59,337 nucleotides of DNA from a virus, in the IMG/VR virus record IMGVR_UViG_3300045988_133192; one strand, written 5' to 3'. The position numbers were made by a program, and so were the translations under genes. Positions 7,264-51,599 of the stretch are shown here, one piece after another. A model generated the notes under the pieces. It had not been told where the DNA came from. It ran no database searches and saw only the letters and a list, made by a program, of their open reading frames with translations. Every line of letters begins with the position of its first letter. Position 1 is the first letter of the stretch.

Positions 7264-8091
7264 ATGGCAACATACAGACAGATATACATATCCTTTTGGA
7301 GCGACACGAAAGTCTGCGATGACTTTTCGCCGGAGGACAAGTATTTCTACATCTACCTGCTGACCAACCCTCACACCAATATCTGCGGATGCTACGAGAT
7401 CAGCTCCAGCCAGATGGCGCAGGAGCTTGGCTACAACGAAGAATCGGTCAAAAAGCTGCTGCGCCGCATGGAGCAGACGCATGATGTCATCCGCTACAAC
7501 TGGCAGAAAAAAGAACTCCTGATCCTGAACTGGCACAAGTACAACTGGACGAAAAGCCCGAAAATGATTTCGGCCGTCCGCGCCGTGGCCCAGTACATCA
7601 AGACCGACGAATACCGGGTCTATATCCTGTCCACGCTCGAACGCACCATCAACGGCCAGAAAGAACCCGCCCCGCAGCCTGCGGCGGCGGGCACTCTTTC
7701 CCTGGCGGCCCCTGCACAGCCCGCCGCCATCACCGCCCACCAGAAGACGGACGAAGAAGAAACCATGAGCCGCATGGTAGCATCCTACGAACAGAACATC
7801 GGCCCGATCAAACGCGCCGTGTTCGACGCTATGCGGACGTGGTGGCTGTCAAAGGGCGTCGAGCCTGACATGATCTGCGCCGCTATGGATGAAGCCGCCA
7901 TGCAGAACGCCCCGAACTGGACATACGCCGAGGGCATCTTGCGCCGCTGTCTTTCCGCAGGTATCACCACGCTGGCCGGATTCCGGGCAGATCAAAAGCA
8001 CTTCCAGAGCAAACGAAAAGGAGGTACGCCCGCCGCGCCCGCTGACCAACAGGAAGAACCCAGCCTGTACGCGGCGTTTGGCATGAACTGA
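7264..8091 (+). CDS. replisome organiser / DnaD-domain replication initiation protein
   Basis: N-terminal YISFWSDTKVCDDFSPEDKYFYIYLLTNPHTNICGCYEIS. C-terminal DnaD-like YEQNIGPI...WTYAEGILRRC. Confidence 0.85.
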   Translation: MATYRQIYISFWSDTKVCDDFSPEDKYFYIYLLTNPHTNICGCYEISSSQMAQELGYNEESVKKLLRRMEQTHDVIRYNWQKKELLILNWHKYNWTKSPKMISAVRAVAQYIKTDEYRVYILSTLERTINGQKEPAPQPAAAGTLSLAAPAQPAAITAHQKTDEEETMSRMVASYEQNIGPIKRAVFDAMRTWWLSKGVEPDMICAAMDEAAMQNAPNWTYAEGILRRCLSAGITTLAGFRADQKHFQSKRKGGTPAAPADQQEEPSLYAAFGMN

Positions 8092-10607: not shown

Positions 10608-11078
10608 ATGCAAGTGCAGCAGTCAGCGAAAGATCGGCTTTCCGAATACCTGCCGATGGCAATGGAAAATAAAAATCGGCTTGCCCGCTTGAATGATATG
10701 CGGGACGCCGCCGGGGGCCTGACAGGTATACCCGAAAGCGACGGCAGCGCACACACGGCCGGGAACAGTCATAAGATGGAAGCCGCGGTCGAACGCTACC
10801 TCGAATACGAAAAGAAGATTCAGCCGCTTTTGAAAGCCAACGCCGACAAGATGGCCAAGCTGGAAAGCATGGTCGATTCCATCCCCGACGGCTTACAGCG
10901 CGAAGTCCTGCGCCTGCGGTACATGGACGCCGAAAGTGAGGACACCTGCCGGCCGAAAAAATGGAACGCCGTTGCCCTCACGCTTTACGGCAGCGACGAC
11001 CGAAAATACATCGAAGCTGTCCACCGCATCCACAAAAAAGCCATTTTGACCCTAGAAAACACAGAAAATGTACCATAA
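10608..11078 (+). CDS. sigma-70 region-4-like late transcription regulator (RinA/ArpU/DUF1492-like)
   Basis: REVLRLRYMDAE...WNAVALTLYGSDDRKYIEAVHRIHKKAI resembles phage late activators. Last gene before the late region. The start could instead be the GTG at 10614. Confidence 0.6.
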   Translation: MQVQQSAKDRLSEYLPMAMENKNRLARLNDMRDAAGGLTGIPESDGSAHTAGNSHKMEAAVERYLEYEKKIQPLLKANADKMAKLESMVDSIPDGLQREVLRLRYMDAESEDTCRPKKWNAVALTLYGSDDRKYIEAVHRIHKKAILTLENTENVP

Positions 11079-11320: not shown

Positions 11321-11656
11321 GTGTACTACATCATTTGCAAACTGGACGTTCCCGGCTTCCATAACTGGCCGGACGCCCCGGCGGGCCTTGAATACCTGCG
11401 CAGCATCCACCGCCATATGTTCAATATTACCGCCAAGATTCCCGTTACCCACGACAACCGCGATCTGGAAATCATCCAGACACAGAACCGCATCCACCAT
11501 TTTCTGTCCGACCGTTTCGGCGACGAAAACGGCCACATGATGCTTGGCTCCATGTCCTGCGAAATGCTGGCGAAGCTGATCGCTGATACTTTCGGCTGCA
11601 CCGAAGTCACCGTGCAGGAAGATGGGCAGGGAGGTGGCGTCTATGTTAGGGAGTAA
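11321..11656 (+). CDS. queD: QueD/PTPS-fold protein (6-carboxy-tetrahydropterin synthase-like)
   Basis: GTG start 8 nt after GGAGG. HxH-type motif SIHRHMFNITAKI and C-terminal VQEDGQGGGVYVRE parallel E. coli QueD (HGHSFMV..., VKETCTAGCIYRGE). The catalytic Cys is not obvious. Confidence 0.6.
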   Translation: MYYIICKLDVPGFHNWPDAPAGLEYLRSIHRHMFNITAKIPVTHDNRDLEIIQTQNRIHHFLSDRFGDENGHMMLGSMSCEMLAKLIADTFGCTEVTVQEDGQGGGVYVRE

Positions 11657-12536
11657 CGTCAAAGTTCATTTTGCCGGAAGCGATGGCAGCAAGGAAAACT
11701 TTTGCGCCCTTGTTGCGGCAGATACCCGCTACCGCCTGTACAGCTGCTATAACTACATCGTCAACAAGAAGCCCGACGATGATTTCAGGCTGCCGGAAGA
11801 TGATATTATTCTGGAACAGCAGAAGCAGCAGAAACACGTCATTCAGGATTCGGGCCTGTTCACCCTGATGTTTGGTGCCAGCAAGGGCCAGCAGCAGACC
11901 ATCTCGACCCTGACCGAATGGCAGGACAAGCTCATTGCCTTTGTCAAGCAGAACCACATCACCGCATCCTGCGTCGAGATCGACTGTCAGAAAGTCCTTG
12001 GCCCGGAAGAAGCGTGGTATTTCCGTCAGCGCATGAGAGATCTTCTGCCCGAAAACAAGCAAATCAACGTCTTTCATTTTGAGGACGGCTTAAAAGGTCT
12101 TGACCGCCTGATCGAATTTGCCGATTACATCGCCGTCAGCGTCCCGGAATGGCGCATTGTAAAGCCCGCAACCCACAAGCAGGATATACGCTACATCACC
12201 CACTACATCAAAAACAAGAAGCCGGAGATCGACATCCATTTGCTTGGCTGCACCGACTTCAAAATCATCCGCGAGAACAATTTCTGCACATCGGCCGATA
12301 GCACGAGCTGGCTGTCCGGCGTGAAGTACGGATATTTCAACGATGGCATCAAAAAAGAACACATCCGCAATTTTAAGCGCAGCCTGTACAACGAGCGCGA
12401 AGCACAGGTAAAGGCTATGATGCTGGCCCGTGGCATCGAGCCAACAGGCAAAAAGCTGGTATATACCACAAACGCCAGCCTTTGCGCGACCATCTGCAAA
12501 GACCTGTATGCCCGCACCTGCGGCCCGCAGGACTGA
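11643..12536 (+). CDS. dpdA: DpdA-like DNA-guanine transglycosylase (7-deazaguanine insertion)
   Basis: TGT-superfamily Asp motifs IQDSGLFTLMFG and CTSADSTSWLSG. Overlaps the queD-like stop, and a preQ transporter gene follows. Confidence 0.75.
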   Translation: MLGSNVKVHFAGSDGSKENFCALVAADTRYRLYSCYNYIVNKKPDDDFRLPEDDIILEQQKQQKHVIQDSGLFTLMFGASKGQQQTISTLTEWQDKLIAFVKQNHITASCVEIDCQKVLGPEEAWYFRQRMRDLLPENKQINVFHFEDGLKGLDRLIEFADYIAVSVPEWRIVKPATHKQDIRYITHYIKNKKPEIDIHLLGCTDFKIIRENNFCTSADSTSWLSGVKYGYFNDGIKKEHIRNFKRSLYNEREAQVKAMMLARGIEPTGKKLVYTTNASLCATICKDLYARTCGPQD

Positions 12537-12554
12537 ACCAAAAGGAGAAGCACA

Positions 12555-13265
12555 ATGAAAAAAAACGACAAGAACTATTCCATCCTGCTGACCCTGTTCG
12601 TGATCTCCATCGTCATTGCGAACGTCGTCGGCAGCCGCACCATTACCACCGGCATCCACCTTGGCCCCATCACCCTGTCCACATCCGGCGGCGCGATCAC
12701 CTACGCTGTCACGTTCCTGTGTACCGACATCGTCGGCGAAATCTGGGGCCGCAAGAAAGCGCAGAGCATGGTTTTCTTTGGCTTTGTAGGCCAGATTTTC
12801 GCAACCATCGCAATTATCCTTACAGGCTGGTGCAGAGCAGTAGACCCTGTTATTGATGGCGCATACCAGACGCTTTTAGGCCAGAACTGGGTTTTCGTCA
12901 TCGGCAGCCTGTGCGCCTACTACGCATCCCAGAGCTGGGACGTCTTTGTGTTCCACAAAATCCGCGATGCCTACATCCGCAAGCACGGCGACGTCAAGGG
13001 CGGTCGCTGGATTTGGAACAACGGCTCCACCTGCACAAGCCAGATCATCGACACCGCCATTTACGCCTTTATCAGTTTTGGTCTGGGCCTTGGCTGGGCA
13101 TTTACCCCGGAGGGCCGCATGAACCTTATCGGCATGATGATCGGTCAGTATCTGCTTAAAGCCTGCCTTGCTCTGGCAGATACGCCGTTCTTCTATTTCT
13201 TCACCCGCCGGGAGGTAACAGAACATGGCAATGAATATCAGGAGAATGCAGCTTGCCGATCTTAA
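12555..13265 (+). CDS. yhhQ: YhhQ/VUT-family queuosine-precursor (preQ0/preQ1) transporter
   Basis: Polytopic membrane protein with ITYAVTFLCTDIVGEIWGRKKA and NNGSTCTSQIIDTAIY signatures. Confidence 0.85.
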   Translation: MKKNDKNYSILLTLFVISIVIANVVGSRTITTGIHLGPITLSTSGGAITYAVTFLCTDIVGEIWGRKKAQSMVFFGFVGQIFATIAIILTGWCRAVDPVIDGAYQTLLGQNWVFVIGSLCAYYASQSWDVFVFHKIRDAYIRKHGDVKGGRWIWNNGSTCTSQIIDTAIYAFISFGLGLGWAFTPEGRMNLIGMMIGQYLLKACLALADTPFFYFFTRREVTEHGNEYQENAACRS

Positions 13266-13842
13266 CCCGGCAGACTACAACCCCCGCAAAGACTTACAGC
13301 CGGACGACCCCACATACCTGAAGATCAAACAAAGCCTTGAAACCTTTGGCATGGTCGAGCCTATCATCTGGAACGAAAGAACCGGGCACATCGTGGGCGG
13401 CCACCAGAGAATCAAGGCCCTGCGCGATATGGGCGAAGCCGAAACCGACGTTGTCGTCATAAACGAACCCCTCAAAGAGGAAAAGAAGCTGAACGTCATC
13501 CTCAACCGCGCCAAAGGCCGCTGGGATAATGAAAAGCTGGCCCCCTTGATGCAGGAGCTTTCCGAACGCGGCGACGTTTCCCTCACAGGCTTTGAGGACT
13601 ACGAGCTGCAAGGACTGATTGACCAGTACCAAAACCGTCTGGCCGACATCCTCGATTATTCACCGCCTGAACCGCAGCCGGACAACGAGCAGGAAGAAGA
13701 AACCCCTGCCGACGCCACATTCTCAATGATCTTTTCCATCCCGGCACAGTACAAGGACGCCGTGGACGCATACCTCGAACAGGACGACGCCCGCGAAACC
13801 CTCGCCGCTGCCATCATGGAAAAAATCAGAGGGGAGGACTAA
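13225..13842 (+). CDS. stand-alone ParB N-terminal (ParB/Srx) domain protein, paralogue 1
   Basis: NPADYNPRKDL ... VGGHQRIKAL core with an acidic C-terminal half. Overlaps the yhhQ 3' end by 41 nt. Confidence 0.8.
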   Translation: MAMNIRRMQLADLNPADYNPRKDLQPDDPTYLKIKQSLETFGMVEPIIWNERTGHIVGGHQRIKALRDMGEAETDVVVINEPLKEEKKLNVILNRAKGRWDNEKLAPLMQELSERGDVSLTGFEDYELQGLIDQYQNRLADILDYSPPEPQPDNEQEEETPADATFSMIFSIPAQYKDAVDAYLEQDDARETLAAAIMEKIRGED

Positions 13843-13845
13843 CGC

Positions 13846-14424
13846 ATGGAATTTGAAGTAAAGCGCATCGCGGACATGAACCGCGCCGCCTATAACCCCC
13901 GCGTCGATCTCCAACCCGAAGATGAAGAATATCAGGCCATCGAGCGCAGCTTGAAGCGTCACGGTCTGGTACAGCCTATCGTTTGGAACCGCCGCACCAA
14001 TACCGTTGTTTCCGGCCACCAGCGTTTGACCGTCCTTGAAGCGCAGGGCGAAACCGAAGTCACCGTTTCCGTCGTCGATCTGGACGACATCCAGGAAAAA
14101 GAGCTGAACGTCGCCCTGAACAAAATCACCGGCGAATGGGACGACGATAAACTTTCCGTCATCCTCAACGAGCTGGGCGAAGAAGCGATCGACACTGGTT
14201 TCACACTCCCGGAAATCGACGTTTTGAGGGATGAACTCAAATCCTACTTTGACGACGTGACCGCACCCGACGAAGAAGAACCCACCGAGGAGCCGGAAGA
14301 ATCTTTCCTGCTTAGCCTGACCTTTGATGCAGCCGACGAAAAGCCCCTGAAAGCCTACATCAAGGAGCACAGCGAAGATGCTGTCGTGAGGATCATCGTC
14401 GATACCGTCACCGCGTCGGCATGA
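13846..14424 (+). CDS. stand-alone ParB N-terminal (ParB/Srx) domain protein, paralogue 2
   Basis: AAYNPRVDL ... VSGHQRLTVL. Colinear similarity to 13225-13842. Confidence 0.8.
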   Translation: MEFEVKRIADMNRAAYNPRVDLQPEDEEYQAIERSLKRHGLVQPIVWNRRTNTVVSGHQRLTVLEAQGETEVTVSVVDLDDIQEKELNVALNKITGEWDDDKLSVILNELGEEAIDTGFTLPEIDVLRDELKSYFDDVTAPDEEEPTEEPEESFLLSLTFDAADEKPLKAYIKEHSEDAVVRIIVDTVTASA

Positions 14425-14465: not shown

Positions 14466-14969
14466 ATGGAAAAACAGGTCAAAACAAAGGTCTGGGAGCA
14501 GCAGCCGAAAGAGAGTGACCCAGCCTATGCTGCGTTCTCCATCTACCGGGACATGGGCAAAAACCGCACCGTCGCGGCGGTGGTAAGGGAGTGCGGCAAG
14601 AATCGGAGCTTAATCGACCGCTGGCACAAGGGCCACAACTGGGCCGCCCGCTGTCGGGCCTACGATAACAGCATCGACGAAGAAGCCCGCAAAAAGGCCG
14701 CCGTAGAAGCGGCCAACATCCGCAAAACGCACCTGCAAATAGCTGCCCAGCTCCAACTAAAGGCACTGAACGCGCTGAACCTGTTGGCCCCGGAGGATAT
14801 GACGCCCCGCGACATCAAGGAAATGCTGAAGCTGGCCCTTGAAGTCGAAAACAACCTCGTACTGGAAAAGGCCCCGCAGGAGGACGCCACAGCCGCGCCC
14901 ACCCTGATGCAGACCATCGAAGAAGCCTATCAGCGCAGAATGGACGGTGAAACCCCACATGACGAGTGA
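14466..14969 (+). CDS. terS: terminase small subunit
   Basis: HTH-like N-terminus (NRTVAAVVRECGKNRSLIDRWHK) and helical C-terminus. Immediately upstream of and overlapping terL. Confidence 0.7.
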   Translation: MEKQVKTKVWEQQPKESDPAYAAFSIYRDMGKNRTVAAVVRECGKNRSLIDRWHKGHNWAARCRAYDNSIDEEARKKAAVEAANIRKTHLQIAAQLQLKALNALNLLAPEDMTPRDIKEMLKLALEVENNLVLEKAPQEDATAAPTLMQTIEEAYQRRMDGETPHDE

Positions 14970-16368
14970 CGCTGTTCTGTTCTACGCTGACCACCCGGTC
15001 GAGTTTGTCGAGGACGTCATAGGAGCAAAGCCGGACACGGAGCAGGCCAAAATCCTGCGAAGTCTTGCCGCCAACCCAATGACCGCCGTTCGGTCTGGAC
15101 ACGGCATCGGCAAGAGCGCGGTGCAGGCGTGGGCGATTATCTGGTTTATCTGCACCCGGCCCTATCCGAAAATCCCCTGCACAGCCCCCACACAGCACCA
15201 GCTGTATGACATCCTCTGGGCCGAGGTGTCAAAATGGCTGCGCAGCAACCCCGCATTGCAGCGGGAGATCATCTGGACACAGGAGCGCGTCTACATGGCC
15301 GGGGCAAAAGAAGAATGGTTTGCCGTTGCCCGAACGTCAAACACCCCGGACGCCCTGCAAGGCTTCCACTCCGAAAGCCTGCTGTTCATCATCGACGAAG
15401 CATCCGGCGTGGACGACAAGGTCTTTGAGCCTGTATTGGGCGCACTGTCCACAGAGGGAGCGCGGCTGCTGATGTGCGGAAACCCCACACAGCTGCAAGG
15501 CTTTTTCTATGATGCGTTCCATAAGAACCGGGCCGAATATCACACCATCCACGTTGACGACCGAAACAGCCCCCGCGTGTCGCAGGAGTATATAGACCGC
15601 ATCCGCACCATGTACGGCGAGGATTCCGACGTTTTCCGCGTCCGCGTCGCCGGGGATTTTCCGAAGTCTGAAAAGGACGTCTTTATCCCGCTGTCGATGG
15701 TCGAGAAGTCCATCAACACCGACTGGAAAGAGCCGGAAAAGCCGCTATCCGTGCATATCGGCTGCGATGTCGCCCGATTCGGCGATGATAAAACCGTCAT
15801 CGGCTACAAGATCGACGAGAAGATCTATTTCCACCAGAAGATACAGGGACAGGACACCGTGCGAACCGCGCATGAAATAGCCCTGCTGGGATGCAGGCTT
15901 GTTGACAAATACCACCTCGAAACCGCTATCCCGGTCAAAATCGACGACGGCGGCGTCGGCGGTGGCGTGACCGACAACCTGCGCCAGATAAAACGCTCTG
16001 ACCCTGACCGCTTCTGGTGGCTCTCCATTGTCCCGGTCAAGTTCGGCCAGATCATCCGGCACAAATACTACCACGACACGACCACCTACATGATGGCCGT
16101 TGTCAAAAAGCTACTCCAAACCATTGACGACGACGGCAACGAAAAGCCCGTCGAACTTATCCTGCCCGACGATGCAGACTTGGCCGCGCAGCTCTCCACC
16201 CGCAAGTATGGCGTCACGGAGAAAAGCAAGGTCAAAATCGAAAGCAAGAAGGACGTCAAAGCCCGCGGCCAACCGTCCCCCGACGAAGCCGACTGCGTCC
16301 TGCTGCTTTGCCTGCCTGTCAAGCCCTCAAAAGCTCACCCGCCAAAGGGAGCAGGAAGAAAGGAGTAA
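14959..16368 (+). CDS. terL: terminase large subunit
   Basis: ATPase Walker A-like GHGIGKS, Walker B LLFIIDEASGVDD, and a C-terminal nuclease region. Confidence 0.95.
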   Translation: MTSDAVLFYADHPVEFVEDVIGAKPDTEQAKILRSLAANPMTAVRSGHGIGKSAVQAWAIIWFICTRPYPKIPCTAPTQHQLYDILWAEVSKWLRSNPALQREIIWTQERVYMAGAKEEWFAVARTSNTPDALQGFHSESLLFIIDEASGVDDKVFEPVLGALSTEGARLLMCGNPTQLQGFFYDAFHKNRAEYHTIHVDDRNSPRVSQEYIDRIRTMYGEDSDVFRVRVAGDFPKSEKDVFIPLSMVEKSINTDWKEPEKPLSVHIGCDVARFGDDKTVIGYKIDEKIYFHQKIQGQDTVRTAHEIALLGCRLVDKYHLETAIPVKIDDGGVGGGVTDNLRQIKRSDPDRFWWLSIVPVKFGQIIRHKYYHDTTTYMMAVVKKLLQTIDDDGNEKPVELILPDDADLAAQLSTRKYGVTEKSKVKIESKKDVKARGQPSPDEADCVLLLCLPVKPSKAHPPKGAGRKE

Positions 16369-39334: not shown

Positions 39335-39509
39335 CACCTGCAACACACATTATGTGCGGTGACACCACATCGGACAGGAGGGTCACAATCTACGGGCTGT
39401 GATCGGTATGTGGGTCTAAAGGAGCCTATTTACCATTCCGGGCAGACAACCCGGAAAAATTTTGTATTGCTGCGAAGGCGGGAACGTCACGCGCAGCGAC
39501 GGTGAAACA

Positions 39510-40676
39510 ATGGCACAAAATATAAATACGATCAATAATGCGTGGGCGGTTATGACGGAGTTTGAATACCTCATAAAAGCCGACCACAATGCCCGCAAAG
39601 GCAAGCGATACAGGCCCGAAGTTCTGGCTTTTACCGCGCAGCTTGAGCGGAATATTTTCGACATTCAAGCCCAAATGCTGGGCGGGACGTACATTCTTGG
39701 CCCATACCGCAAACTTTGGGTATATGTTCCGAAAAAGCGGCTTGTAATGGCCCTTGGCTACTCCGACCGCATTGTCCAGTGGAGCCTATACCAGTATTTG
39801 AACCCGATATATGACAAGCTCTTTATTGAGGATTCCTACGCTTGCAGAAAGGGTAAAGGCAGCCACCGGGCCGCCGCCCGCTTGCAATATTGGGTGCGGA
39901 AGGTCAGCCGCAAGCCGGATGGCTGGTATTATCTGAAGCTGGACATCTCAAAATTTTTCTACCGCGTCCACCATGAAAAGCTGCTGAACATCCTCTCGAA
40001 GCGCATCAAAGACCCGCAGCTGATGGCGTTTCTGGAAAAGGTCATAAACAGCAGGGCGCAGCCGTTCGGCCTGCCACGCGGCAAAGCCCCACAGGATACG
40101 CCGCCGGGGGACTGGCTCTATGACGTCGGTATGCCCATCGGCAACCTTACCAGCCAGCTTTTTGCGAACATATATCTCAACGAACTTGACCAGTTTGCAA
40201 AACACGTCTTGCGCATCCACTACTACATCCGCTATATGGACGATGTGATTATACTGGCAAAGGACAAAGAAACCCTGCACCGCTGGAAAGCCGAAATCGA
40301 AGCATTTTTGAACGATGAACTCCACCTCGATCTGAACGACAAAACGTGCATCCGACCTGTACGAGCTGGCATCGAATTTGTGGGCGTTCGCATCTACGCC
40401 ACCCACATGAAGTTGCGCAAGTCCACCACCAGCCGGCTGAAACGCGAAATCCGAAAGATCACTGAACTGTACGCCACCGGGCAAATGAGCAAAGCCGACT
40501 TTGACCGCCGCACGGCCAGTGTCAACGGCCTGCTGGAGCATACCGACAGCGCGAGCTTGCGCGGCCGCCTGAACCTGATCTATTTTGATACCATGCGGAA
40601 GAACGGAAAGCTCATACAGCCCGACGCCGGAATCTGGAAAGGGAACCATGAAGCAAGAGCACAAAAGCTGGCCTGA
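39510..40676 (+). CDS. DGR reverse transcriptase
   Basis: IRYMDDVIIL (YMDD) and the DGR-typical PIGNLTSQLFANIYLNELD motif. ATG at 39510 is internal to ORF 39462-40676. Confidence 0.95.
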   Translation: MAQNINTINNAWAVMTEFEYLIKADHNARKGKRYRPEVLAFTAQLERNIFDIQAQMLGGTYILGPYRKLWVYVPKKRLVMALGYSDRIVQWSLYQYLNPIYDKLFIEDSYACRKGKGSHRAAARLQYWVRKVSRKPDGWYYLKLDISKFFYRVHHEKLLNILSKRIKDPQLMAFLEKVINSRAQPFGLPRGKAPQDTPPGDWLYDVGMPIGNLTSQLFANIYLNELDQFAKHVLRIHYYIRYMDDVIILAKDKETLHRWKAEIEAFLNDELHLDLNDKTCIRPVRAGIEFVGVRIYATHMKLRKSTTSRLKREIRKITELYATGQMSKADFDRRTASVNGLLEHTDSASLRGRLNLIYFDTMRKNGKLIQPDAGIWKGNHEARAQKLA

Positions 40677-42922: not shown

Positions 42923-43085
42923 CACTTGAAAGGTTCCGACCTTTGTAGGGAGCGGCCCGCCCGGTCTGGGCGTTTCGCTCTTGATTTTTATTTGGCCGCT
43001 ATGGCAGCATAAAATCCCCTGATCTGACCGAAGCCCAACGCGCCGCGCCGGGTACATCGTAGGCAGACCGGGGGATTTTTTATTG
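42923..43085 (+). ncRNA. candidate ~160-nt structured non-coding RNA
   Basis: Promoter 42889-42917 and a U-run terminator (cccctgatctg...cagaccggggg-attttttatt). No plausible ORF. Internal hairpins at 42929-42944 and 42956-42972. Confidence 0.4.
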
Positions 43086-50870: not shown

Positions 50871-51599
50871 ATGACCGACAAAGAAATCACGGAGCTGAAC
50901 CTGAAAAGTGCCACCTACTACGGCGCACAGCTCCAGATGAACCACTTCACCGAAGAGCTGGCCGAACTCATTCAGGCCGCCGCCGAGGGCGACCCGCAGC
51001 ACATCGCCGAGGAAATCGCCGACGTGGAAGTCATGGTCGAGCAGATGGAATATTTGCTTTCTCTCGATACGATCTACATTGAGAGCTGGGCAACGCACAT
51101 CCTGCTTGCAAACGATATTGAATCCTGCATCTGGCATCTGGCTGCGCCCATCAAGAGCATCAACAAGCTGCGCCGTGTCAATCTGGCGACCGCCGCCGAC
51201 CCGGATATGTCAAAAGACGAAGTTCAGATCAAACGGCAAACCGCAAACCACGACCTTGAAACCGACATTGGAGAGCTGGTTTCCTATCTGAACTGGCTGG
51301 CCGGACGTTATAGCATCGCTGCCGAGGAAATCCGGGAAATCAAGTCCTACAAGGTACAGCGCACCCGCGACCGCATCGAACTTGAAACCGGCTCCATCTG
51401 CAAAAAAGTTGTTGACGACAAGGCGGCTGCACAGGCCCAGGATTTAGCCGACTACTGCAAACAGCAAACAGAGTGTGAACCCGGTGGCTGCATCTTTGCC
51501 ACGACTGGCGAGGGCTGCATCTTATCTGATTATGTTCGGCCTGAACTTTGGCCCGATGCCATCGCTAAACAGCAGCAGGAGGGGCAGAAGAATGGATAA
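50871..51599 (+). CDS. MazG-like NTP pyrophosphohydrolase domain protein with ~140-aa C-terminal extension
   Basis: EELAELIQAAAEGDPQHIAEEIADVEVMVEQMEY (EExxE...ExxD pattern). Confidence 0.65.
   Translation: MTDKEITELNLKSATYYGAQLQMNHFTEELAELIQAAAEGDPQHIAEEIADVEVMVEQMEYLLSLDTIYIESWATHILLANDIESCIWHLAAPIKSINKLRRVNLATAADPDMSKDEVQIKRQTANHDLETDIGELVSYLNWLAGRYSIAAEEIREIKSYKVQRTRDRIELETGSICKKVVDDKAAAQAQDLADYCKQQTECEPGGCIFATTGEGCILSDYVRPELWPDAIAKQQQEGQKNG

Follow-up and report, generated by a model that had tools for sequence, protein, structure and literature searches.

We use profile searches, structure prediction and a survey of related loci to study a block of five genes at positions 11321-14424 of a 59,337-nucleotide (nt) stretch of viral DNA, the IMG/VR record IMGVR_UViG_3300045988_133192 (the window, by which we mean this whole stretch). 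The coordinates are given in Table 1. Five open reading frames (ORFs) on the + strand encode, in order, a small protein that we assign to the DpdL family, a DpdA-type DNA transglycosylase, a transporter of the YhhQ family and two stand-alone proteins with a ParB N-terminal (ParB-N) domain, here called ParB1 and ParB2. The small-subunit terminase gene, terS, begins 41 nt after the end of the ParB2 gene, so that the block lies directly upstream of the packaging genes. We consider it very likely that the block is a 7-deazaguanine DNA-modification module, and it is probably a pre-terminase set for DNA hypermodification that would be expressed late.

The block was singled out by an earlier reading of the bare sequence (the original prediction) as five tightly packed or overlapping genes, and all five are present as it placed them, apart from the start of dpdA. 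Going from dpdL to the ParB2 gene, the first and third junctions are overlaps, of 14 and 41 nt, and the second and fourth are gaps, of 18 and 3 nt. Nearly all of the best 120 homologues listed for DpdA are 290-305 amino acids (aa) long and cover about 98% of the 304-aa version of the query; because their length and coverage do not use the upstream start at 11622, we take the ATG at 11643 as the true start. The identical five-gene order is found in roughly 15 near-identical metagenomic contigs and in one Faecalibacterium metagenome-assembled genome (MAG), and parts of the module are seen again in more than 100 loci. The arrangement is therefore not a chance one.

The transglycosylase and the small protein encoded before it

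The dpdA product matches phrog_887, annotated 'queuine tRNA-ribosyltransferase' (5e-21), and contains the motifs DSGLF and ADSTSW. An AlphaFold2 model of the protein (predicted local distance difference test score 93.3, predicted template modelling score 0.90) finds 84 Protein Data Bank (PDB) structures in Foldseek at E <= 0.001, and the best 50 of those listed are all either Cap10 or bacterial tRNA-guanine transglycosylase (TGT). The top matches, Cap10 and the TGTs of Z. mobilis and T. maritima, have E values of about 1e-6 to 1e-5 and query-normalised TM-scores of 0.5-0.6, and the predicted fold is thus a TGT-like TIM barrel. The sequence itself has no match in Pfam or NCBIfam, and so none to the TGT model PF01702, nor any in sequence and profile searches of the PDB.

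To place the enzyme we rely on a family profile of 53 representatives that are 25-51% identical, among which D69 of DSGLF is nearly invariant and D219 of DSTSW is invariant. Aligned by hhalign with the DpdA1 of phage 9g, this profile scores 97.2% probability (E 5e-11), with DSGLF falling on DSGAF and DSTSW on DSSSW; it scores 99.5% (E 1e-22) with the N-terminal domain of the BCD7 DpdA and 86% with Rosebush gp2. By analogy with the TGT and DpdA literature, both Asp residues are presumably catalytic. The profile alignments put the window enzyme in a DpdA1-like clade, related at profile level to the validated 9g DpdA1, and this clade comprises about 390 clusters at 50% identity in a large protein library. 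An assignment to DpdA3, expected from the company that DpdL keeps with DpdA3 in phage phiST, was rejected: BLASTP against CGPG_00065 was not significant and hhalign gave 2.7%. We also rejected the idea that the 500-aa C-terminal extension of the BCD7 DpdA is a fused ParB, as a Rosetta-stone test would have it (hhalign 0.2%, no Pfam match). Separately, the dpdA frame is split into two ORFs in seven loci (L040, L042, L061, L067, L068, L114 and L129), which could stem from a frameshift, from a stop codon or from misassembly and may mean occasional inactivation.

The shared fold raises the alternative that the module acts on host tRNA and queuosine metabolism, with the TGT-like enzyme as a tRNA transglycosylase and the transporter boosting queuosine precursor for translation; phages with preQ0-pathway genes but no DpdA may indeed boost queuosine synthesis (Hutinet et al., PMC6884629). 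We regard this as very improbable, given that no TGT is matched by sequence or profile, that the window enzyme aligns with a validated, DNA-acting DpdA1, and that it is consistently linked to ParB-N proteins, which are of a DNA-binding type, and to the terminase region. The original prediction of a DpdA-like enzyme distinct from tRNA TGTs is borne out by this grouping with phage DpdA.

The 111-aa protein had been read as QueD-like, with no catalytic Cys beside its HRH motif. The missing Cys is confirmed: the protein carries LRSIHRHMF (L26-R-S-I-H30-R31-H32-M-F34) and has no Cys at the QueD position. Its identity, however, has to be corrected to DpdL, a QueD paralogue in which LxxxHRHxF replaces the QueD CxxxHGH and which is a proposed decarboxylase converting 7-carboxy-7-deazaguanine (CDG) to 7-deazaguanine (Cui, Hutinet et al., NAR 2023, PMC10516641). 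With tblastn the protein finds phiST CGPG_00067 (2e-11, with 85% of the query aligned at 36.7% identity) and the Acidovorax phage ACP17 DpdL (2e-6), and phmmer against the phiST DpdL gives 2e-15. The motif residues L26, H30-R31-H32 and F34 are invariant across nine aligned DpdL members including CGPG_00067, as are H14, E50, S79-C80-E81 and E100-D101-G102. On this basis we assign the protein to DpdL as a predicted CDG decarboxylase. Because the protein is DpdL, the predicted base is 7-deazaguanine and not 7-cyano-7-deazaguanine (preQ0) or 7-aminomethyl-7-deazaguanine (preQ1), and the likely salvaged precursor is CDG.

The protein has no match in Pfam (PTPS included) or NCBIfam, a profile of the nine DpdL sequences finds nothing in the PDB, and hhalign of this profile against the phiST QueD is not significant. 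For the phiST DpdL a 99.9% HHpred match to the QueD/PTPS T-fold has been reported (PMC10516641), and by transitivity the window DpdL would share that fold. The genomic context is partial in the window, where DpdA occurs without QueC but FolE, QueD and QueE are missing too; the full context, DpdA with FolE, QueD and QueE but without QueC, is found in orthologous modules of relatives such as L099. In Chryseobacterium phage MA9V-3 (L004), DpdL occupies the C-terminal third of a longer protein (293 aa) that begins with an extension of about 180 aa, and genes for QueE, FolE and a DpdA3-sized protein lie close to the fusion.

A transporter in place of precursor synthesis

The third gene encodes a COG1738 protein that matches Vut_1 (3e-41, 141.8 bits against a cut-off of 27.2) and the 'queuosine precursor transporter' model TIGR00697 (111.1 bits against 50.95). 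We therefore place it, from these models, in the queuosine-precursor transporter family. The original prediction of a YhhQ-type transporter for preQ0 or preQ1 stands as to family; the protein is not the E. coli-type preQ0/preQ1 equivalog (NF008406, 31 bits against a cut-off of 252).

Reference FolE, QueD, QueE, QueC and Gat-QueC proteins from four phages (a set without QueF) find no counterpart in the window, and precursor-synthesis families are not among the 25 strongest of the 56 Pfam families matched by its 141 ORFs. The expectation that the phage has a transporter instead of its own precursor synthesis is thus upheld for FolE, QueE, QueC and Gat-QueC. As for the host, the dpdA region is 100% identical in a prophage on a 208-kilobase (kb) contig of an uncultured Faecalibacterium MAG, and this identity makes Faecalibacterium the host of the temperate myophage. 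In the phenotype table of Rodionov et al. (PMC6593275) the ninth column reads 0 for all five F. prausnitzii genomes. Taken as the queuosine column from the order in which that paper lists its nutrients, and not from the column's own header, these scores suggest that F. prausnitzii is a queuosine auxotroph. CDG figures in that work among the precursors that gut bacteria can salvage, and YhhQ, QueT and QrtT are named there as candidate importers (PMC6593275).

Two ParB N-terminal domain proteins

ParB1 matches phrog_620 (1.4e-40), phrog_498, which is the N-terminus of a DNA methyltransferase (7e-40), and the N-terminus of the PADLOC MTase_II model (3e-34); ParB2 matches phrog_620 (2.5e-38) and the same MTase_II N-terminus (7e-31). 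Both score 23-24 bits with Pfam ParB_N, just under its cut-off of 26.3. The two are 35% identical in alignment and are paralogues, in agreement with the original prediction, and the pair is kept in several lineages. A profile of 19 dpd-associated ParB proteins matches ParB/Noc CTPase domains in the PDB, including B. subtilis ParB (6sdk, 8e-16), and in all of these proteins G59, the Gly of GxxR, and N94, the Asn of box III, are conserved, with R62 nearly invariant. ParB1 itself has the motifs NPR, GGHQR and LN(R/K). Its AlphaFold2 model consists of a nucleotide-binding domain, a disordered acidic linker and a helical C-terminal domain of about 40 aa, with no helix-turn-helix (HTH), and the top Foldseek matches of this model are Noc and ParB.

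Two more specific identities were considered and set aside. A canonical partition ParB fits the nucleotide-binding domain, but neither protein has a Pfam match to HTH_ParB, the model has the acidic disordered linker in the position of the HTH, and no ParA family is among the 25 Pfam families listed for the window ORFs (no parS search was made). Orthologues of DpdB, the ParB-like partner of bacterial DpdA, are rejected by the score of 13.6 bits against a cut-off of 300 with the DpdB model NF041060 and by the lack of a match to any PADLOC Dpd model. The DpdB traits are missing too: the window proteins have GGHQR/SGHQR and not DGQHR/DGQQR, and at 205 and 192 aa they have room for only the roughly 40-aa helical C-terminal domain. 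One contig that is otherwise window-like (L010 and L128) has a single ParB, 75% identical to ParB1 over its first 142 residues, which resembles the product of a recombination or deletion between the two paralogues.

Module variants among relatives

We fetched 80 viral and 28 genomic loci encoding relatives of the window DpdA and mapped their neighbours with jackhmmer; the comparative analysis spans 111 related loci, with PHROG scans of one Veillonella prophage as a check. Several versions of the module emerge. The first, ParB-DpdL-DpdA-QueD-QueE-FolE, has neither QueC nor YhhQ and is found for example in a Veillonella montpellierensis prophage. The second, ParB-DpdL-DpdA-YhhQ, takes the order DpdL-DpdA-YhhQ-ParB-ParB in the window's clade. 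QueC appears in ParB-ParB-DpdA-QueC-YhhQ-QueD-QueE-FolE and in DpdA-QueC-YhhQ-ParB-ParB(-terS), the latter in two loci that are otherwise window-like (L097, L143). Finally, ParB-DpdA-YhhQ without DpdL or QueC occurs in L064-066, L079, L100 and L046. With three enzymatic or transport genes plus ParB, the window module is the smallest version found here.

Two patterns of substitution stand out. Among loci with at least 2.5 kb of sequence downstream of DpdA, the precursor source is YhhQ only in 53, QueE/FolE only in 30, both in 6 and neither in 1, so that YhhQ and QueD-QueE-FolE largely substitute for each other within the module family. In addition, DpdL and QueC occur together in none of the related loci (0), and in L097 and L143 QueC occupies the place of DpdL. 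Both QueC and, as proposed, DpdL use CDG as substrate. Because the biosynthetic variant, with an orthologous DpdL, ends at CDG, this compound is the likeliest substrate of the window DpdL, and the simplest reading of the salvage variants is that they would be fed with CDG.

ParB-N proteins accompany DpdA and other DNA-modifying enzymes

For counting adjacency we grouped DpdA at 70% identity, which gave 32 clusters. In 28 of them the module has a ParB-N ORF as its immediate neighbour; two more (L069, L107) scored negative only through overlapping, over-extended ORF calls, and the remaining two are truncated. A stand-alone ParB-N gene thus adjoins the module in all evaluable clusters (30/30), with hosts among Oscillospiraceae, Veillonella, Bacteroidia, Flavobacteriales and Treponema, and a DpdA of this clade without ParB-N was not seen in any evaluable cluster. 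The original prediction had suggested that the ParB pair might be DpdB analogues. The link to dpdA that this supposes is supported by the cluster count; homology to DpdB in the narrow sense is not, given the model score above. The accompanying statement that phage DpdAs usually act alone was too general, since Rosebush, whose DNA contains the 2'-deoxy form of preQ0 (dPreQ0), shares the ParB-DpdA arrangement.

The ParB-N domain is not dedicated to DpdA; in most other cases examined it accompanies a known or candidate DNA-modifying enzyme. ParB1-type homologues occur in 196 of 50,697 phage records (about 0.4%), and 29 of 40 sampled rows stand under a gene annotated as DNA methyltransferase. Fusions of ParB-N with an N6_N4 methyltransferase are confirmed, and phmmer matches the N-terminus of one of them, the NatCom_6392 protein, at 1e-39. 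Stand-alone ParB-N genes are found directly before a Mom-family protein (L135) and two small ORFs before a GT1 glycosyltransferase (L138), in both cases with DUF5681 (terS-like) and then terL downstream. A third setting is a prophage family of the Oscillibacter type that contributes more than 260 blocks of the collection. Here a ParB-N, often a ParB-ParB pair, 48% identical to ParB1, is followed by a 339-aa weak radical-SAM (S-adenosylmethionine) protein, a 281-aa PALP enzyme of the pyridoxal phosphate (PLP) type and then terS-terL-portal, and this radical-SAM/PLP set may be an undescribed DNA-modification module in the slot that the dpd genes occupy elsewhere. Whether the ParB genes follow the terminase and not dpdA, a question raised by the original prediction, has a mixed answer: relatives without dpdA do keep ParB beside the terminase, but in most of these few the ParB is fused or adjacent to a modifying enzyme.

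Proposed mechanism and alternatives

We propose that the five proteins form a single chain, to which as a whole we give a probability of about 0.5; each specific step is less secure than the assignment of the block as a modification module. The YhhQ-family transporter would import a 7-deazaguanine precursor, likeliest CDG, into the infected, non-producing cell; as the host appears to be an auxotroph, CDG would have to enter via the phage transporter. DpdL would then strip the carboxyl group from CDG to give 7-deazaguanine, which DpdA would exchange for guanines in replicated double-stranded phage DNA before packaging. ParB1 and ParB2, possibly as a heterodimer, would serve as DNA-bound activators or clamps for DpdA, a role akin to that of DpdB for bacterial DpdA and of the ParB-like activator for one subclass of phage thymine dioxygenase. 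The expected benefit would be phage DNA shielded from restriction and other DNA-targeting defences. DNA modifications of the 7-deazaguanine type guard phages against restriction enzymes and, in vitro, also against Cas9.

A number of observations weigh against one part of this chain or another, and we take them up together with the alternatives that they favour. For the precursor, the substrates established for E. coli YhhQ are preQ0 and preQ1, not CDG (PMC6884629), and the decarboxylase activity of DpdL is only a proposal so far, with reconstitution of 2'-deoxy-7-deazaguanine (dDG) in E. coli having failed (PMC10516641). It could then be that YhhQ imports preQ0 or preQ1, that DpdA inserts this base directly and that DpdL has another role, acting on some other deazapurine or pterin, or after insertion. 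The ParB-DpdA-YhhQ variants without DpdL or QueC are consistent with direct insertion, and their DpdAs carry S166, V167 and N138 just as DpdL-associated ones do. Nor does the transglycosylase itself discriminate well: no alignment column cleanly splits DpdL-associated from QueC-associated DpdAs, and a change of S166 to G is seen only in two of three independent QueC-associated lineages. The segment that holds S166 is one which we take to correspond to the LAVGE substrate-specificity loop of TGT.

We nonetheless think direct insertion unlikely. The orthologous DpdL occurs with FolE-QueD-QueE and without QueC, a pathway able to yield only CDG; DpdL and QueC exclude each other in modules that are otherwise the same; and phiST, which has DpdL, carries dDG in its genome (PMC10516641).

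The second alternative concerns the ParB-N pair, which could stand outside the deazaguanine system: a pre-terminase resident with its own role, such as packaging-site recognition or cleavage, regulation, or a remnant of a ParB-methyltransferase that has lost its catalytic half, next to which the dpd genes were inserted at the same accessory hot spot. The module always lies near terminase genes, so adjacency could indeed reflect a common insertion hot spot, and ParB-N genes stay by terS/terL in relatives that lack dpdA (L117-119, L130-131, L134-145). The position of ParB relative to the dpd genes varies, downstream in the window's clade and upstream elsewhere. In a mirror-tree test the pairwise identities of DpdA and ParB are nearly uncorrelated (Spearman 0.18), with at least three ParB-N subtypes; because the ParB subtype changes independently of the DpdA tree, tightly co-evolving cognate pairs are disfavoured. 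The GERR box of these ParB proteins occurs as GGHQR, GETR and GNMR, without conservation of its catalytic Glu, and L101 has no ParB upstream of DpdL, the sequence beyond FolE being too short to judge the downstream side. Finally, 9g DpdA1 inserts preQ0 without any ParB (PMC6884629), so that dependence on ParB is not a property of the whole family.

Set against this unrelated neighbour is the cluster count: the domain adjoins all 30 evaluable DpdA clusters, across several phyla, yet its frequency among phage records is only about 0.4%. In most relatives, where ParB is upstream of DpdL, it is separated from terS by three to six dpd genes. Away from dpd loci, most instances of the domain are methyltransferase fusions, the few stand-alone cases examined lie beside a known or candidate modifying enzyme, and no packaging role for it was found in the literature searched. 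We therefore hold a separate role for the ParB pair to be the less probable reading, though a more serious competitor than direct insertion, and favour ParB1 and ParB2 as putative partners of DpdA.

Phage context and further features

The Pfam scan of the 141 window ORFs describes a temperate, contractile-tailed phage, with a serine recombinase, the replication genes RecT, SSB, DnaB_2 and IstB, and sheath and baseplate genes. Upstream of the module, a regulator-like gene of phrog_36 is kept throughout the window's clade, and RusA is also upstream. The 242-nt gap between this gene and the module contains no sigma-70-like promoter that we could find, and no preQ1 or other Rfam riboswitch. Between the module genes there is no terminator-like site on the + strand; the sole prediction on that strand falls inside yhhQ and is within chance expectation.

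Other features of the window are included in Table 1. A diversity-generating retroelement is indicated by a reverse transcriptase together with a bAvd-like protein. The only Rfam family in the window is a DUF3800-VIII RNA. One ORF has weak matches, below cut-off, to MazG/PRA-PH pyrophosphohydrolases; phiST carries a MazG-like gene beside dpdL, and a link of the window ORF to nucleotide or deazapurine metabolism is conceivable. Another ORF, with an N6_N4_Mtase match (2.8e-15) from the batch Pfam scan, is unrelated to the methyltransferase domain of the ParB-methyltransferase fusions, for which phmmer finds no relative in the window. Outside the window, terL of the V. montpellierensis prophage (L099) is split in two by a 213-aa homing endonuclease (phrog_314, 1.3e-45), in an arrangement that resembles an intein or intron.

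Table 1. Positions of the module genes and of other features named in the text; L numbers denote related loci outside the window.
Feature	Sequence	Position	Strand	Remarks
Regulator-like gene	window	10608-11078	+	phrog_36 'transcriptional regulator', 1.1e-11
dpdL	window	11321-11656	+	111 aa; GTG start
dpdA	window	11643-12536	+	297 aa; ATG start; alternative longer start 11622 gives 304 aa
yhhQ-family gene	window	12555-13265	+	236 aa
ParB-N protein 1 (ParB1)	window	13225-13842	+	205 aa
ParB-N protein 2 (ParB2)	window	13846-14424	+	192 aa
terS	window	14466-14969	+	phrog_6299, 1.3e-25
terL	window	14947-16368	+	phrog_5902, phrog_2, weak Terminase_6N
Reverse transcriptase	window	39462-40676	+	RVT_1, 1.3e-21
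DUF3800-VIII RNA	window	43013-43077	+	59.9 bits; gathering score 40.2
MazG/PRA-PH-like ORF	window	50871-51599	+	242 aa; 7.5e-4 / 2.5e-3
AAA_18 P-loop protein CGPG_00066	L003 (phiST)	7290-7769		9e-7
DpdL fusion protein	L004	6452-7333		Chryseobacterium phage MA9V-3
Single ParB	L010	8583-9167		window-like contig
Single ParB	L128	5001-5585		window-like contig
Split terL	L099	9155-11384		V. montpellierensis prophage
Stand-alone ParB-N directly before Mom-family protein	L135	5001-6192		PF25680, 1e-41; one viral contig
Stand-alone ParB-N two small ORFs before GT1 glycosyltransferase	L138	3661-5633		
ParB-N and radical-SAM/PLP pair	L140	5001-8023		
ParB-N and radical-SAM/PLP pair	L141			
ParB-N and radical-SAM/PLP pair	L145	5001-7640		
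ParB-N and radical-SAM/PLP pair	L131	879-3904		

Novelty and significance

The component families DpdA, DpdL, YhhQ and ParB-N have all been described previously, and phages with DpdA only, some also with YhhQ, were noted in 2019 (PMC6884629). In the literature searched we did not find a description of DpdL with a transporter but without CDG synthesis, of YhhQ alternating with QueD-QueE-FolE, and DpdL with QueC, within one module family, of an essentially universal ParB-N partner for this DpdA clade, or of ParB-N adjoining diverse DNA-modifying enzymes. A bolder reading would have a ParB-dependent subclass of DpdA comprising the window's clade and the Rosebush type, with ParB-N as a general activator and phage YhhQ as an importer of CDG; we hold this combined reading to be less likely than not.

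Were it true, many unrelated post-replicative enzymes expressed just before packaging would share one kind of activator or clamp, the small ParB-N protein in free or fused form, which would serve methyltransferases, Mom, DpdA, 5mYOX and possibly the glycosyltransferase and radical-SAM systems. The link to DpdA, if it holds, would extend ParB-like activation from a phage DNA dioxygenase to a second, unrelated enzyme class and would hint at a general function of the ParB-N domain that is so common in phage methyltransferases. With import of CDG, this would be the first case of a phage that assembles a DNA base, 7-deazaguanine, starting from an intermediate that it salvages, and the module would connect the DNA chemistry of a phage of an abundant gut commensal with the shared gut pool of queuosine precursors. 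DpdL is also the sole enzyme proposed for the dDG pathway without a demonstrated function. The comparative data point to its likely substrate, CDG, and to a likely missing cofactor, ParB-N; the combined reading, if true, might also account for the failure to reconstitute dDG from DpdL plus DpdA alone. The module offers a testable route, and a cultured relative exists in Faecalibacterium phage Roos, which has the order ParB-DpdL-DpdA-YhhQ and is grown on strain FM8.

Comparison with known systems

The closest parallel to the DpdL-DpdA pair is the dDG system of phiST, which consists of FolE-QueD-QueE, MazG, DpdL, an AAA_18 protein and DpdA3 (Cui, Hutinet et al., NAR 2023, PMC10516641). Like the window it has a DpdL with LxxxHRHxF beside a DNA transglycosylase and no QueC. 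It differs in that its DpdA3 is unrelated to the window DpdA at profile level, in that it produces its own CDG where the window has only a transporter, and in that no ParB lies in the 14-kb stretch around dpdL. The AAA_18 P-loop protein CGPG_00066 is encoded between DpdL and DpdA3, so the phiST system also has a small NTPase-like neighbour, though not a ParB.

In overall layout the window resembles Rosebush and other cluster B mycobacteriophages, where gp1, a ParB-like protein, and gp2, a DpdA, are followed by QueC, QueD, QueE, FolE and terL. ParB-N, DpdA and precursor genes directly before the terminase are shared, and gp1 matches the ParB profile at 96.8%. In Rosebush 28% of G is dPreQ0 (PMC6884629), and for ORF1, the counterpart in phage CRB2, a role like that of dpdB has been suggested in passing (PMC6392294). 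Rosebush has, however, the full preQ0 pathway with QueC, no DpdL, no transporter and a single, longer ParB of 263 aa. The DpdA1 of Enterobacteria phages 9g and CAjan is homologous to the window enzyme, with both Asp motifs aligned, and that of 9g is a validated DNA guanine transglycosylase (PMC6884629). It differs in being ParB-independent, in inserting preQ0 and in lying in a replication module by FolE, QueD, Gat-QueC and QueE.

The bacterial Dpd system of Salmonella Montevideo likewise pairs a DNA transglycosylase of TGT fold with a ParB-superfamily protein, and there DpdA needs the NTPase DpdB for insertion into double-stranded DNA (PMC10164549). That system is part of a restriction-modification system, and DpdB is a different kind of protein, with about 350-400 aa, a DGQQR/DGQHR motif and an SspE-like C-terminal domain; the window proteins fail the DpdB model and are nearer to canonical ParB/Noc CTPase domains and to methyltransferase N-termini.

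An architectural match is ParB176, with a nucleotide-binding and a C-terminal domain and no DNA-binding domain, which the thymine dioxygenase 5mYOX176 needs on double-stranded DNA (O'Toole et al., PNAS 2026, PMC13229309). Terminases are frequent neighbours of the 5mYOX/ParB genes (PMC13229309). The layout is that of the ParB1 model, and here too the gene stands beside a post-replicative DNA-modifying enzyme; the likeness drawn here is one of architecture. The partner in that case is an iron/2-oxoglutarate dioxygenase, and DpdA and deazaguanines are absent from that paper (PMC13229309). The ParB-N/methyltransferase fusions of Firmicutes phages (phrog_498; PADLOC MTase_II, PDLC03229) have a closely homologous domain in the same pre-terminase position. 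In these the ParB-N is covalently joined to an N6_N4 methyltransferase, whereas in the window it is stand-alone, duplicated and found with a transglycosylase module.

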